31,020 bases of DNA from Escherichia coli. Lineage in GTDB: Bacteria > Pseudomonadota > Gammaproteobacteria > Enterobacterales > Enterobacteriaceae. Shown one piece after another: positions 1 to 30,926 of this stretch. Where the stretch lies: NCBI RefSeq assembly GCF_003334315.1, contig NZ_QOWR01000054.1. One strand, written 5' to 3'. The notes beneath the pieces were generated by a model, which worked only from the letters and a program-made list of their open reading frames with translations, was not told the origin of the DNA and searched no databases. A program made the position numbers and the translations under genes. The number at the start of each line of letters is the position of its first letter. The stretch's first letter is position 1.

Positions 1-218
1 TTTTTCGTCTTGCGACGTTAAGAATCCGTATCTTCGAGTGCCCACACAGATTGTCTGATAAATTGTTAAAGAGCAGTTGCGACGCGGCTTTCAGCTCACT
101 GTCGCGAGGTGGCGTATATTACGCTTTCCTCTTTCAGAGTCAACCCTGAATTTCAGGATTTTTCTCTTCAACCGAACCGGCTGTTTGTGTGAAGTGATTC
201 ACATCCGCCGTGTCGATG
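1..218 (-). promoter_or_regulatory. rrnE: rRNA operon leader (rrnE-type), 5' portion of the leader transcript with antitermination boxA/boxC; 16S rRNA gene itself lies beyond the window start
   Basis: Reverse complement of 1-100 reads ...TGCTCTTTAACAATTTATCAGACAATCTGTGTGGGCACTCGAAGATACGGATTCTTAACGTCGCAAGACGAAAAA, which I recognise as the conserved rrn leader; boxA (TGCTCTTTAACAA) is the reverse complement of about 63-75. Position upstream of divergent purH fits rrnE. Confidence 0.8.
108..143 (-). promoter_or_regulatory. rrnE: rrn P2 promoter
   Basis: On the minus strand: -35 TTGACT (rc of 138-143), 16-nt spacer, -10 TAATAT (rc of 116-121), followed by a GC-rich discriminator (ACGCCACC) typical of stringently controlled rRNA promoters. 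Confidence 0.7.
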
Positions 219-275
219 GAGGCGCATTATAGGGAGTTCTCCGCAGGCCGCAATAGAAAAATTGCAGAAAAATAA
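218..275 (-). promoter_or_regulatory. rrnE: rrn P1 promoter with AT-rich UP element
   Basis: On the minus strand: -35 TTGCGG (rc of 248-253), 16-nt spacer, -10 TATAAT (rc of 226-231), GCGCC discriminator, and an A/T-rich tract (254-275) immediately upstream in the UP-element position. Confidence 0.6.
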
Positions 276-424
276 CTGACTGCTGCATTCCCCAGCAAAA
301 CCCCGCTTTATACCTTTTTACGCACAGAGTTATCCACAATCATCAATGTAATTTCTGTATTTTTCCCACGGTAACCACTGTCAAAATTGTGATCACCATT
401 GAAAGAGAAAAATTCGCGAGCGTT

Positions 425-440
425 GCGCAAACGTTTTCGT
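425..440. promoter_or_regulatory. PurR operator (pur box) in the purHD promoter region
   Basis: GCGCAAACGTTTTCGT matches the pur-box consensus (ACGCAAACGTTTNCNT) at 15 of 16 positions; it sits about 110 bp upstream of the purH start and is followed by a TACAAT -10-like hexamer (441-446). Confidence 0.6.
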
Positions 441-547
441 TACAATGCGGGCGAAAAATAAGGATGCCCCGTTAGGGGCGTTAGCTGAGTTTTTCGCGAA
501 AAATTCAGCTAACGCTCTCTGTAATAGTCAAATCCAGGGGATTTACC

Positions 548-2137
548 ATGCAACAACGTCGTCCAGTCCGCCGCGCTCTGCTCAGTGTTTCTGACAAAGC
601 CGGTATCGTCGAATTCGCCCAGGCACTTTCCGCACGCGGTGTGGAGCTGCTGTCTACAGGGGGCACTGCCCGTCTGTTAGCAGAAAAAGGTCTGCCGGTA
701 ACCGAAGTTTCCGATTACACCGGTTTCCCGGAGATGATGGATGGACGCGTGAAGACCCTGCATCCGAAAGTACATGGTGGCATTCTGGGCCGTCGCGGCC
801 AGGACGATGCCATTATGGAAGAACATCAGATCCAGCCTATCGATATGGTGGTTGTTAACCTGTATCCGTTCGCCCAGACCGTGGCCCGTGAAGGTTGCTC
901 GCTGGAAGATGCGGTTGAGAACATCGATATCGGCGGCCCAACGATGGTGCGCTCCGCCGCCAAGAACCATAAAGATGTCGCAATCGTGGTGAAGAGCAGC
1001 GACTATGACGCCATTATTAAAGAGATGGATGACAACGAAGGATCGCTGACGCTTGCAACCCGTTTCGACCTCGCCATCAAAGCCTTCGAACACACTGCCG
1101 CCTACGACAGCATGATTGCCAACTACTTCGGCAGCATGGTTCCGGCTTACCACGGTGAAAGCAAAGAAGCCGCCGGTCGCTTCCCACGCACGCTGAACCT
1201 GAACTTCATTAAGAAGCTGGATATGCGTTACGGCGAGAACAGCCACCAGCAGGCTGCCTTCTATATAGAAGAGAATGTGAAAGAAGCCTCCGTTGCTACC
1301 GCAACCCAGGTTCAGGGTAAAGCCCTCTCTTATAACAACATCGCCGATACCGATGCGGCGCTGGAGTGCGTGAAAGAGTTCGCCGAGCCGGCATGTGTGA
1401 TTGTGAAGCACGCCAACCCTTGCGGCGTGGCTATCGGCAATTCCATTCTTGATGCTTACGATCGCGCGTACAAAACCGACCCAACCTCCGCATTCGGCGG
1501 CATCATTGCCTTTAACCGCGAGCTGGATGCGGAAACCGCACAGGCCATCATTTCTCGTCAGTTTGTCGAAGTGATTATTGCGCCGTCCGCCAGCGAAGAA
1601 GCCCTGAAAATCACCGCCGCCAAACAGAACGTACGCGTTCTGACCTGCGGTCAGTGGGGCGAGCGTGTTCCGGGCCTCGATTTCAAACGCGTGAACGGCG
1701 GTCTGCTGGTTCAGGATCGTGACCTGGGGATGGTCGGTGCGGAAGAACTGCGCGTGGTGACCAAACGTCAGCCGAGCGAACAGGAACTGCGTGATGCGCT
1801 GTTCTGCTGGAAGGTGGCGAAGTTTGTGAAATCCAACGCTATCGTCTATGCCAAAAACAATATGACTATCGGCATTGGCGCGGGCCAGATGAGCCGCGTG
1901 TACTCCGCAAAAATCGCCGGTATTAAAGCGGCCGATGAAGGCCTGGAAGTGAAAGGTTCCTCGATGGCTTCTGACGCGTTCTTCCCGTTCCGCGACGGTA
2001 TTGATGCCGCCGCCGCTGCGGGCGTGACCTGCGTAATCCAGCCTGGCGGTTCTATCCGTGATGACGAAGTGATTGCCGCCGCCGACGAGCACGGTATTGC
2101 GATGCTCTTCACCGACATGCGCCACTTCCGCCATTAA
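548..2137 (+). CDS. purH: Bifunctional AICAR transformylase / IMP cyclohydrolase
   Basis: 529-aa [26 protein letters not shown]..., recognised as PurH over its full length; immediately followed by purD, the known purHD operon arrangement. Confidence 0.97.
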
Positions 2138-2148
2138 TGGAGCAATAG

Positions 2149-3438
2149 ATGAAAGTATTAGTGATTGGTAACGGCGGGCGCGAGCACGCGCTGGCCTGGA
2201 AAGCGGCGCAGTCGCCGCTGGTTGAAACTGTTTTTGTTGCTCCGGGTAATGCAGGCACTGCGCTGGAACCCGCGCTACAGAACGTCGCTATCGGCGTAAC
2301 CGATATCCCGGCGCTGTTGGATTTCGCACAAAACGAAAAGATTGATCTGACCATCGTCGGCCCGGAAGCGCCGCTGGTGAAAGGCGTGGTCGATACCTTC
2401 CGCGCCGCCGGGCTGAAAATCTTCGGCCCAACCGCAGGTGCGGCCCAACTGGAAGGCTCAAAAGCGTTTACCAAAGATTTCCTGGCCCGCCATAAGATCC
2501 CTACGGCGGAATACCAGAACTTCACCGAGGTAGAACCTGCGCTGGCGTATCTGCGTGAGAAAGGCGCGCCAATCGTCATTAAAGCGGACGGTCTGGCTGC
2601 CGGGAAAGGCGTTATCGTGGCGATGACGCTGGAAGAAGCGGAAGCGGCTGTTCACGATATGCTGGCGGGCAACGCTTTTGGCGACGCGGGTCATCGCATC
2701 GTTATCGAAGAGTTCCTCGATGGCGAAGAAGCGAGCTTTATCGTGATGGTGGACGGAGAGCATGTGCTGCCGATGGCTACCAGCCAGGATCACAAACGCG
2801 TAGGCGATAAAGATACCGGACCAAACACCGGCGGGATGGGCGCTTACTCCCCCGCGCCGGTAGTAACCGATGAAGTTCATCAGCGCACCATGGAACGTAT
2901 CATCTGGCCAACCGTGAAAGGCATGGCGGCGGAAGGCAACACCTACACCGGTTTTCTCTACGCGGGCCTGATGATCGACAAACAGGGCAATCCGAAGGTT
3001 ATCGAATTTAACTGCCGCTTTGGCGATCCGGAAACCCAGCCGATTATGCTGCGCATGAAGTCCGATCTGGTTGAGCTCTGCCTGGCAGCCTGTGAAGGGA
3101 AGCTGGACGAGAAAACATCCGAGTGGGATGAACGCGCTTCTCTCGGCGTGGTGATGGCTGCGGGTGGATATCCGGGCGATTACCGCACCGGTGATGTGAT
3201 CCACGGCCTGCCGCTGGAAGAAGTGGAAGACGGCAAAGTGTTCCATGCAGGCACAAAACTGGCGGATGACGAGCAGGTAGTGACCAGCGGCGGGCGCGTA
3301 CTGTGCGTCACCGCGCTGGGTCATACCGTGGCAGAAGCGCAGAAACGCACTTATGCCTTAATGACCGATATTCACTGGGACGACTGCTTCTGCCGGAAAG
3401 ATATCGGCTGGCGCGCCATCGAACGCGAGCAGAACTAA
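2149..3438 (+). CDS. purD: Phosphoribosylamine-glycine ligase (GAR synthetase)
   Basis: 429-aa ORF MKVLVIGNGGREHALAWKAAQSPL... with ATP-grasp motifs; 11 bp downstream of the purH stop. Confidence 0.97.
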   Translation: MKVLVIGNGGREHALAWKAAQSPLVETVFVAPGNAGTALEPALQNVAIGVTDIPALLDFAQNEKIDLTIVGPEAPLVKGVVDTFRAAGLKIFGPTAGAAQLEGSKAFTKDFLARHKIPTAEYQNFTEVEPALAYLREKGAPIVIKADGLAAGKGVIVAMTLEEAEAAVHDMLAGNAFGDAGHRIVIEEFLDGEEASFIVMVDGEHVLPMATSQDHKRVGDKDTGPNTGGMGAYSPAPVVTDEVHQRTMERIIWPTVKGMAAEGNTYTGFLYAGLMIDKQGNPKVIEFNCRFGDPETQPIMLRMKSDLVELCLAACEGKLDEKTSEWDERASLGVVMAAGGYPGDYRTGDVIHGLPLEEVEDGKVFHAGTKLADDEQVVTSGGRVLCVTALGHTVAEAQKRTYALMTDIHWDDCFCRKDIGWRAIEREQN

Positions 3439-27058: not shown

Positions 27059-27089
27059 CAAAAAGGCTGGTGACTAAAAAGTCACCAGC
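27059..27089 (-). terminator. rplL-rpoB intergenic attenuator (partial intrinsic terminator)
   Basis: On the minus strand GGCTGGTGACT-TTTT-AGTCACCAGCC followed by TTTTT lies about 40 nt after the rplL stop; a second hairpin (CAGCCTGA...TCAGGCTG) sits just upstream of it. A partial terminator is known at this position in the L10 operon. Confidence 0.7.
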
Positions 27090-27129
27090 CATCAGCCTGA
27101 TTTCTCAGGCTGCAACCGGAAGGGTTGGC

Positions 27130-29687: not shown

Positions 29688-29726
29688 TAAAAACAAAAGG
29701 CGCGAAATTGTATTCCAATCTCGCGC
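29688..29726 (-). terminator. Intrinsic terminator/attenuator between nusG and rplK
   Basis: On the minus strand AAGGCGCGAGATTGGAATACAATTTCGCGCCTT followed by TTGTTTTT lies about 40 nt downstream of the nusG stop; the remaining roughly 80 nt before rplK is the L11 operon leader. Coordinates approximate. Confidence 0.6.
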
Positions 29727-29766
29727 CTTGTGCAACGATTAAATCGCCGCTTTTTTGATCGCTGGG

Positions 29767-30697: not shown

Positions 30698-30870
30698 AAA
30701 CCAACCTGTCAGAAGTTTTCTACAAACATTTTCACCCCGCGATCGCGAGGCAAACCAAATCGAAACGCGTATTAGCTTTTCGGATTATACGCCCTCAACA
30801 GAGCCTGTCTCAGCAATGATTATGACAAAGAAAATCACTGATGAGCCAGGTTCTGGTACGAAAGCGTGCA

Positions 30871-30896
30871 AAAAGGGCATCAAATGATGCCCTTTT
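30871..30896 (-). terminator. Rho-independent terminator downstream of tufB
   Basis: AAAA-GGGCAT-CAAATG-ATGCCC-TTTT, a hairpin flanked by A and T runs, about 30 nt after the tufB stop. Confidence 0.65.
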
Positions 30897-30926
30897 AGTG
30901 CGCATTGCGTCAAATGTTATCGGCAA

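Follow-up and report, generated by a model that had tools for sequence, protein, structure and literature searches.

The leader of the purHD operon of Escherichia coli contains, between the promoter and the purH start codon, a 38-nt palindrome joined to a small GC hairpin, and on comparative sequence evidence the two together are a conserved RNA structure formed on the purH strand. The element was studied in a 31,020-nt stretch of E. coli DNA, called the window hereafter, and all coordinates are window positions. Its helix is maintained by compensatory changes over three families of Enterobacterales, wobble pairs place it on the + strand, and the variants found within Escherichia are structure-neutral. 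These observations uphold the proposal of an RNA structure in the purH 5' untranslated region (UTR), one of two possibilities raised in a sequence-only reading of the same DNA. The leader stem-loop very probably tunes purH expression after transcription.

The palindrome, here called P2 (GCGTTAGCTGAGTTTTTCGCGAAAAATTCAGCTAACGC), occupies positions 478-515 of the + strand and can form a stem of 17-19 bp with a core at 480-513 and a CGCG apex. Its arms (478-496 and 497-515) are 19 nt each, 95% complementary and directly adjoining (spacer 0 nt), in agreement with the near-perfect 38-bp palindrome that the sequence-only reading had described; the one mismatch, G489/T504, is the sole non-Watson-Crick pair, a G·U wobble in + strand RNA. 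The GC hairpin, P1, was likewise found as described, with the sequence GCCCC-GUUA-GGGGC (GCCCC-GTTA-GGGGC in the DNA) at 466-479 (+), extendable to U465·G480. It overlaps the palindrome: G478 and C479 are the last two bases of P1 and the first two of P2, and because both helices share these bases they compete for them. P2 is the longest palindrome of the 31-kb window, the next ones having arms of at most 14 nt, and the longest palindrome arm in 60 first-order shuffles of the window measured 10-14 nt, as against 19 nt for P2. The RNA from 450 to 560 folds with z = -4.17 relative to 200 dinucleotide shuffles, none of which folds as well (0/200). The next-longest palindromes of the window lie at 27063-27092, 29697-29729 and 30869-30898, with arms of 13-14 nt and spacers of 2-5 nt, and two of the three bear A-run/T-run flanks typical of terminators.

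The position of the element, before purH (548) and after the pur box, is also as first reported: the 3' end of P2 falls 32 nt upstream of the purH ATG in E. coli, and the PurR operator (pur box) of the purHD promoter, GCGCAAACGTTTTCGT, lies at 425-440 (+), outside the hairpin element. This pur box is the sole match in the window to the PurR consensus ACGCAAACGTTTGCGT (2 mismatches, with up to 3 allowed), which bears out the view that the PurR operator does not explain the palindrome. It agrees with the published PurR site for purH-purD, which is of the ACGAAACGTTTGCGC type (PMC3159470), and is conserved at every Enterobacterales purH locus compared. The -10 hexamer of the promoter, read from the sequence, is TACAAT at 441-446 (+), and TACAAT or TAAAAT stands directly 3' of the pur box in all related loci; the position of the hexamer places the probable transcription start at about 453-454. 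Since the palindrome lies between the pur box and -10 hexamer (425-446) and the purH ATG (548), it is very probably transcribed as part of the purHD leader.

Conservation was assessed on purH loci from 80 species representatives, of which the 140 nt upstream of the start codon were compared. The P1-P2 architecture, downstream of the pur box and -10, is found in 34 sequences, the window and 33 further loci, which make up the alignment set. These belong to the Enterobacteriaceae, the Erwiniaceae (Pantoea, Erwinia and Mixta), the Yersiniaceae (Serratia, Yersinia and Rahnella) and Brenneria. The conserved portion is the lower part of P2, GCGUUAnCUGA ... UnAnnUAACGC, together with the 3' flank UCU; the apex varies in sequence and in length (0 to ~60 extra nt), and the whole element measures 38-102 nt among the 34 species. 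The element is missing from the purH loci of Vibrionaceae, Pasteurellaceae, Aeromonas, Photorhabdus, Xenorhabdus, Edwardsiella, Budvicia, Tatumella and Rosenbergiella. In Serratia, Pantoea, Erwinia, Yersinia and Rahnella the apex is 20-60 nt longer (loci L025:191-278, L028:191-278, L031:547-617, L033:281-335 and L035:284-366). These long apexes form one or two further hairpins of the CUCUUUAUAUAGAGAG type, in which a UAUA loop joins a pyrimidine arm to a purine arm; the hairpins are conserved in kind, and E. coli has none.

The sequence-only reading had pointed to conservation of the palindrome in other enterobacteria, compensatory changes included, as a check, and had counted a lack of conservation outside very close relatives among what would speak against its proposal. 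The comparison clearly speaks in its favor: among the 34 species, 9/17 pairs of P2 show both-sided changes, amounting to 40 cells, a level reached by 0/500 column shuffles, and controls in which the columns were slid by 1-3 give 4-19 cells. The same is seen on 39 distinct short-form sequences that include metagenome variants. Pair 484-509, for example, is GC in 20 species, CG in 10 and UA in 2, and pair 489-504, the "mismatch" of E. coli, is GU in 17 species, AU in 14 and GC in 3. Counting wobbles in the + strand register gives 34 G·U cells versus 9 A·C cells; with G·U in such excess, the helix must be taken to form on the purH (+) strand.

Not all of the stem is free to change in this way. 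Pairs 482-511, 483-510 and 488-505 are invariant in the 34 species, 481-512 and 486-507 are changed in one species only (33/34), and the TAACGCTCT flank is invariant or nearly so across species. In roughly half of the species, non-canonical pairs (C·C, C·U, G·G) are conserved at positions 485/508 and 487/506. The 3' flank as it stands in E. coli, GCUCUCUGUAAUA at 514-526 (+), contains the near-invariant GCUCU and amounts to a weak boxA-like word. Almost all of the 34 species have P1, its 5' arm rich in C, its 3' arm rich in G and its loop free in sequence; its covariation is scant, as most changes yield wobble pairs and a single one is double-sided. Only three sites of the leader are polymorphic within Escherichia, all of them structure-neutral: position 462 is single-stranded, the change at 479 turns C-G into U·G, and 495 lies in the loop. 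The leader is at least 99% identical in 5393/5420 E. coli genomes.

By these sequence comparisons the element is single-copy and purH-specific, neither a repeat nor a mobile element, and most Enterobacteriaceae, Erwiniaceae and Yersiniaceae share it. The stretch 300-560 is single-copy in 5420/5426 complete E. coli genomes; the two blastn places found per genome are presumably the palindrome matching itself on the opposite strand. A covariance model built from 20 short forms matched each locus exactly once, on the + strand and always in the purH leader; the rest of the 31-kb window gave no match. Metagenome contigs were scanned with a sequence pattern for short-form elements, and of the 40 matches 39 stand upstream of an open reading frame (ORF) starting as PurH; the 40th does not pair. 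The distance to the gene is likewise kept, the 3' end of P2 lying 32-39 nt before the ATG in 32/34 species and in 38 of the 39 purH-linked metagenome matches, the remaining one of which is at 64 nt. In Siccibacter colletis (L020:543-593) the element is 144 nt upstream of the purH ATG, with extra sequence inserted before the ribosome-binding site. A looser pattern run on viral contigs gave 40 matches, which are non-pairing chance matches without purH. Three related viral/prophage contigs (L139:157-194, L140:4041-4084 and L143:1687-1724) bear hairpins that share the lower-stem words (GCGTTAYCTGA...TCAGRTAACGC) but have no purH nearby, with an A-run on one side and a T-run on the other as in bidirectional terminators; these are probably an unrelated coincidence of pattern. 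Rfam has no relevant match at E<=10 in window 1-1200, the one hit being a chance match to mir-725 (23.8 bits against a gathering score of 76), and nothing on the purH leader in 7 other loci.

The leader can fold in more than one way. In an extended helix, P2ext (475-518, +), GGGG (475-478) pairs with CUCU (515-518) in place of P1, giving a duplex of 20-22 bp. Constrained folds of the E. coli leader put P1 plus the P2 core at -29.7 versus -28.9 kcal/mol for P2ext, the two lie within 2 kcal/mol of each other in 19/31 species, and the full-leader partition function favors P2ext. Both strands specific to P2ext are invariant, hence there is no covariation signal either way. Upstream of P1 the 5' end of the leader (GAAAAAUAAGGA, 453-464, +) is A-rich, unpaired in folds and different in sequence between genera; it runs into an AAGGAUG word (460-466). 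Downstream, the RNA from the hairpin to the AUG is largely unpaired in predicted folds, and the ribosome-binding region (530-547, +), in which the Shine-Dalgarno (SD) sequence GGGGA (537-541) sits inside a small local hairpin AAAUCC/GGAUUU, is conserved in Enterobacteriaceae. GGA motifs of the CsrA type occur in E. coli in AAGGAUG (460-466) and in GGGGAU at the SD, and an upstream GGA is found in ~14/32 species; CsrA-regulated leaders typically have at least two conserved GGA motifs, with one of them overlapping the SD.

Several further roles for these sequences were considered and rejected. An anti-SD switch, in which the CCCC of P1, freed by P2ext, would pair with the GGGG of the SD, leaves the predicted unpaired probability of the SD at 0.34 vs 0.34 in E. 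coli. Long-range pairing of GGAUG/CGUU (462-473) with CGUCC/AACG early in the coding sequence appears in the E. coli minimum free energy fold, but its 5' partner is unconserved. Use of the upstream GGGC (449-452) as an alternative P1 partner, in a pyrC-like switching of start sites, and a mini-ORF AUG464-UAG475 (AUG CCC CGU UAG, inside P1 and after an AAGGA word) depend on a partner and a start codon, respectively, that are unconserved in other genera. The resemblance to a tRNA-Ala acceptor/D-arm (GGGGCGUUAGCUGAG vs GGGGCUAUAGCUCAG, with G477·U516 mimicking G3·U70) rests on position 484, which varies among G, C, U and A, and is taken to be a coincidence. The minus-strand terminator flagged by the terminator scan (the P1 complement plus AUCCUUAUUU) has an unconserved tail, and the wobbles point to the + strand.

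The reading favored here, tentatively, is that the lower stem and its flank may constitute a specifically recognized post-transcriptional operator in the purHD leader. Sequence-specific recognition is proposed because five lower-stem pairs and GCUCU hardly vary, the apex is free and the spacing to the ATG is fixed; near-invariant lower-stem pairs beside the freely flipping 484-509 are unexpected for a helix needed only for stability. In this proposal the leader would present, in order, about 12 unpaired A-rich nt, P1 (466-479), P2 (478-515) and some 32 nt of largely unpaired RNA with the SD and AUG. The lower stem and GCUCU flank would serve as a sequence-specific site for a trans-acting factor, probably a protein, that would control the initiation of purH translation and/or the lifetime of the mRNA without involving PurR, and the choice between P1 and P2ext would decide exposure of the GCUCU flank. 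A bound 30S subunit reaches roughly 35 nt upstream, and P2 ends just outside this region. As to the partner, a weak lead comes from an E. coli RNA-interactome preprint (bioRxiv 10.64898/2026.07.23.740326), where PurH itself is among the proteins bound to RNA. A bolder version, in which the helix and GCUCU would be the operator of a PurR-independent feedback loop, either through autogenous PurH binding or through a Nus-factor/boxA-type coupling to the divergent rRNA operon, is speculative and rather improbable.

Several points weigh against such an operator. Distant Enterobacterales (Photorhabdus, Xenorhabdus, Edwardsiella and Mangrovibacter) have a long leader hairpin of different sequence at a similar distance, 27-40 nt before the ATG, which fits a structural role at least equally. 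Pair invariance could partly reflect limited divergence or undetected alternative pairing. The E. coli 3'-end mapping tables and RNase III tables examined hold no purH-leader entry, and a search of a library of papers found none on the purH leader structure and none printing its sequence. A simple structural switch acting on translation is not supported, given the unchanged SD accessibility predicted in E. coli; among 22 other species the difference in SD accessibility between the two foldings has no consistent direction, as illustrated by Serratia oryzae (0.67 vs 0.43) and Enterobacter BIGb0383 (0.49 vs 0.63), in which it does differ by state. The hairpins of Photorhabdus and Xenorhabdus have the base AUGUUAUUG/CAAUAACAU, which also contains GUUA/UAAC. 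In P. caribbeanensis (L036:334-610, compared with L038 and L041) a structured insertion of ~120 nt occupies the hairpin apex and the base AUGUUAUUG/CAAUAACAU is kept.

The hairpins of distant relatives are most readily accommodated if the element is passive, that is, if a stable stem-loop in the 5' UTR blocks 5'-end-dependent access or scanning by RNase E and/or insulates the ribosome-binding region from the sequence before it, with no trans factor. This alternative, though itself doubtful, is nearly as likely as the operator. It suits a hairpin as stable as this one (about -25 to -30 kcal/mol, besides the z-score given above), the freedom of the apex in sequence and length, the mostly unpaired RNA between hairpin and AUG, and the maintenance in distant genera of a leader hairpin of unrelated sequence at that distance from the ATG. 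It leaves unexplained, however, why the near-invariant lower-stem pairs and GCUCU are kept in the 34 species while 484-509 flips, and why the C-rich arm of P1 is constantly the 5' one. In the ompA type of leader the stabilizer hairpin sits right at the mRNA 5' end. Like the ompA-type stabilizers, the purH element is a highly stable stem-loop placed in the 5' UTR ahead of an accessible ribosome-binding site; it differs in its base-specific lower-stem conservation and in that P1 begins ~13 nt from the likely 5' end, where the classic hairpins begin at the terminus itself.

Processing by RNase III, in which the ~20-bp duplex of P2 or P2ext (475-518) would be cleaved, the 5' part of the leader removed and purHD stability or translation altered, is unlikely. 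The continuous duplex, 17-19 bp in P2 or 20-22 bp in P2ext, is long enough, RNase III substrates falling in the ~20-bp size range (PMC6212723), and the long forms of other genera are irregular helices of ~30 bp, like known leader substrates. The processed leaders of rnc and pnp share with purH a continuous duplex of about 20 bp in an mRNA leader; they differ in that the tables examined give no cleavage site in the purH leader. The sole site of Gordon et al. in the purH-rrsE spacer, at genome position 4207874 (window ~206), lies in the rrnE leader. RNase III has, moreover, little base specificity, and the near-invariant lower stem would go unexplained.

An action on transcription takes two forms, both quite unlikely: P2 and its pyrimidine-rich tail might be an intrinsic attenuator, or the hairpin and GCUCU might be a boxB-boxA (nut/rrn-like) site for loading Nus factors, as in suhB. 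For the attenuator, the tail is U-rich in Yersiniaceae (for example UCUUUUUAUU) and P1, like an anti-terminator, contends with P2 for the pairs that close its stem. In E. coli, however, only 4 of 8 nt in the tail, UCUCUGUA, are U, where a terminator calls for a tract with at least 5 U in 8 within 0-2 nt of a GC-closed stem; the terminator scan calls none on the + strand at P2 in E. coli, Serratia oryzae or Yersinia, and purH has no entry in the E. coli 3'-end (Term-seq) tables.

The boxA form draws on the flank in other genera, which reads CGCUCUUA in Pantoea and Erwinia, the same word as the core of the lambda boxA. Serratia, Rahnella and Mixta have GCUCUUUA there (8/10 to GYTCTTTAANA), and Brenneria has GUUCUUUAAUG (9/10). 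The layout of hairpin then boxA also resembles that of the divergent rrnE leader. More generally, the purH leader is like the boxB-boxA leaders of rrn, lambda nut and suhB (PMC5725501) in having a stem-loop directly followed by a GCUCU-type word some tens of nt before the start codon, a likeness strongest in Pantoea, Erwinia, Serratia and Brenneria, where the word is near a true boxA. In the boxA consensus, GYTCTTTAANA, positions 4 and 6 are critical and were mutated to inactivate the suhB boxA (PMC5725501). The E. coli purH word misses the consensus at 2-3/10 positions, position 6 among them: its flank GCUCUCUGUAA scores 7/10 at 514-524, with C at position 6, or 8/10 at 516-526, with G there. 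Matches with 2 mismatches are common by chance (57 in the window vs 39 expected), purH is absent from the published boxA list, and the conservation of GCUCU is equally explained by its pairing with GGGGC in P2ext. The only perfect boxA consensus in the window, GCTCTTTAACA, is at 64-74 (-), in the rrnE leader.

Action at the level of the DNA is very unlikely, whether as the operator of a dimeric regulator, the other possibility raised by the sequence-only reading, or as a cruciform palindrome responding to supercoiling from the divergent rrnE promoters. The features that suggest it are those of E. coli: a 38-bp palindrome that is nearly perfect, lacks a spacer and is AT-rich at its center, a location ~250 bp upstream of rrnE P1, a very strong promoter, and arms that resemble everted PurR half-sites at 6-7/8 bases. 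Among species the distance between the arms differs by 0 to ~60 extra bases, a range that no DNA-binding dimer could tolerate, and the element is therefore not the operator of such a protein. In many species, moreover, the element contains mismatches and a large imperfect interior, which neither a fixed dimer nor the extrusion of a cruciform would allow. The wobbles are strand-specific (34 G·U vs 9 A·C), the G·T pairs of one strand being A·C mismatches on the other. As for PurR, the window holds no second match to its consensus, and the palindrome arms are everted, separated and non-matching.

That the element is a functionless relic, either the remnant of a small mobile inverted repeat or a chance palindrome hitch-hiking with a conserved promoter, is scarcely credible: its terminal inverted repeats and variable interior superficially resemble a miniature transposable element, but each of 5420 E. 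coli genomes has a single locus, where REP, BIME or MITE sequences would be dispersed in copies, the place relative to purH is constant in the 34 species and in 39/40 metagenome matches (the viral matches being non-pairing and without purH), and compensatory substitutions with structure-neutral polymorphism amount to purifying selection on the helix.

The surroundings of the leader are those of a divergent pair of operons. The purH coding sequence, annotated as purH in RefSeq, runs from 548 to 2137 (+) and encodes 529 amino acids with 99% identity to Escherichia PurH; purD follows downstream at 2149-3438 (+). On the other side, the rrnE leader and promoters occupy 1-290 on the minus strand, divergent from purH. 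The Rfam family Ysr197 ("Yersinia sRNA 197") matches the rrnE leader at 53-286 (-) with 119.8 bits, below its gathering score of 167. The corresponding part of the rRNA leader is matched in Pantoea and Edwardsiella as well, a sign that this family may include sequence of the rrn leader. Past the rrnE upstream region and before the purH promoter, the word TTATCCACA at 330-338 (+) is a perfect DnaA box; it is single-copy in the window, and as at least one copy occurs in 15/100 shuffles it may be due to chance. The word G(C/A)GAAAAAT is present in three direct copies, at 405-413, 451-459 and 496-504 (spacing 46 and 45 nt), which cover the purH promoter, the leader start and the 3' arm of the palindrome.

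The palindrome itself is probably an old observation. The purHD sequence paper of Flannigan et al. (1990) reportedly noted two dyad symmetries in the mRNA leader, one hairpin preventing the other, and these mutually exclusive dyads match P1 and P2/P2ext. To our knowledge, the original purHD papers (Flannigan et al., 1990; Aiba and Mizobuchi, 1989) report no function and no analysis of conservation or covariation. No earlier description seems to exist of the element's conservation, covariation, strand assignment, purH specificity or phyletic range. The element is an unannotated conserved leader structure within a classic operon, absent from Rfam.

The regulon to which purHD belongs is among the best studied in bacteria, and its control is thought to be exerted essentially by the PurR repressor. 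A leader structure under purifying selection implies an added post-transcriptional control at the step that consumes AICAR (ZMP) and formyl-folate, the same step that in many other bacteria is under the control of the ZTP (pfl) riboswitch, which regulates purH there. The two have in common their context, the purH 5' UTR, and a plausible need to sense purine/folate status. There is no resemblance in sequence or structure and no Rfam match at E<=10, and the E. coli element differs in being a simple helix that lacks any conserved junction or internal loop in which a ligand pocket could form. If it acts only as a stabilizer, the purH hairpin would still provide a clean case from nature of a conserved obstacle in a 5' UTR. 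With a specific partner, residual PurR-independent regulation would be explained and a simple, well-defined hairpin operator would be available for study, and should the feedback loop be real, a post-transcriptional layer would be added to a textbook regulon.

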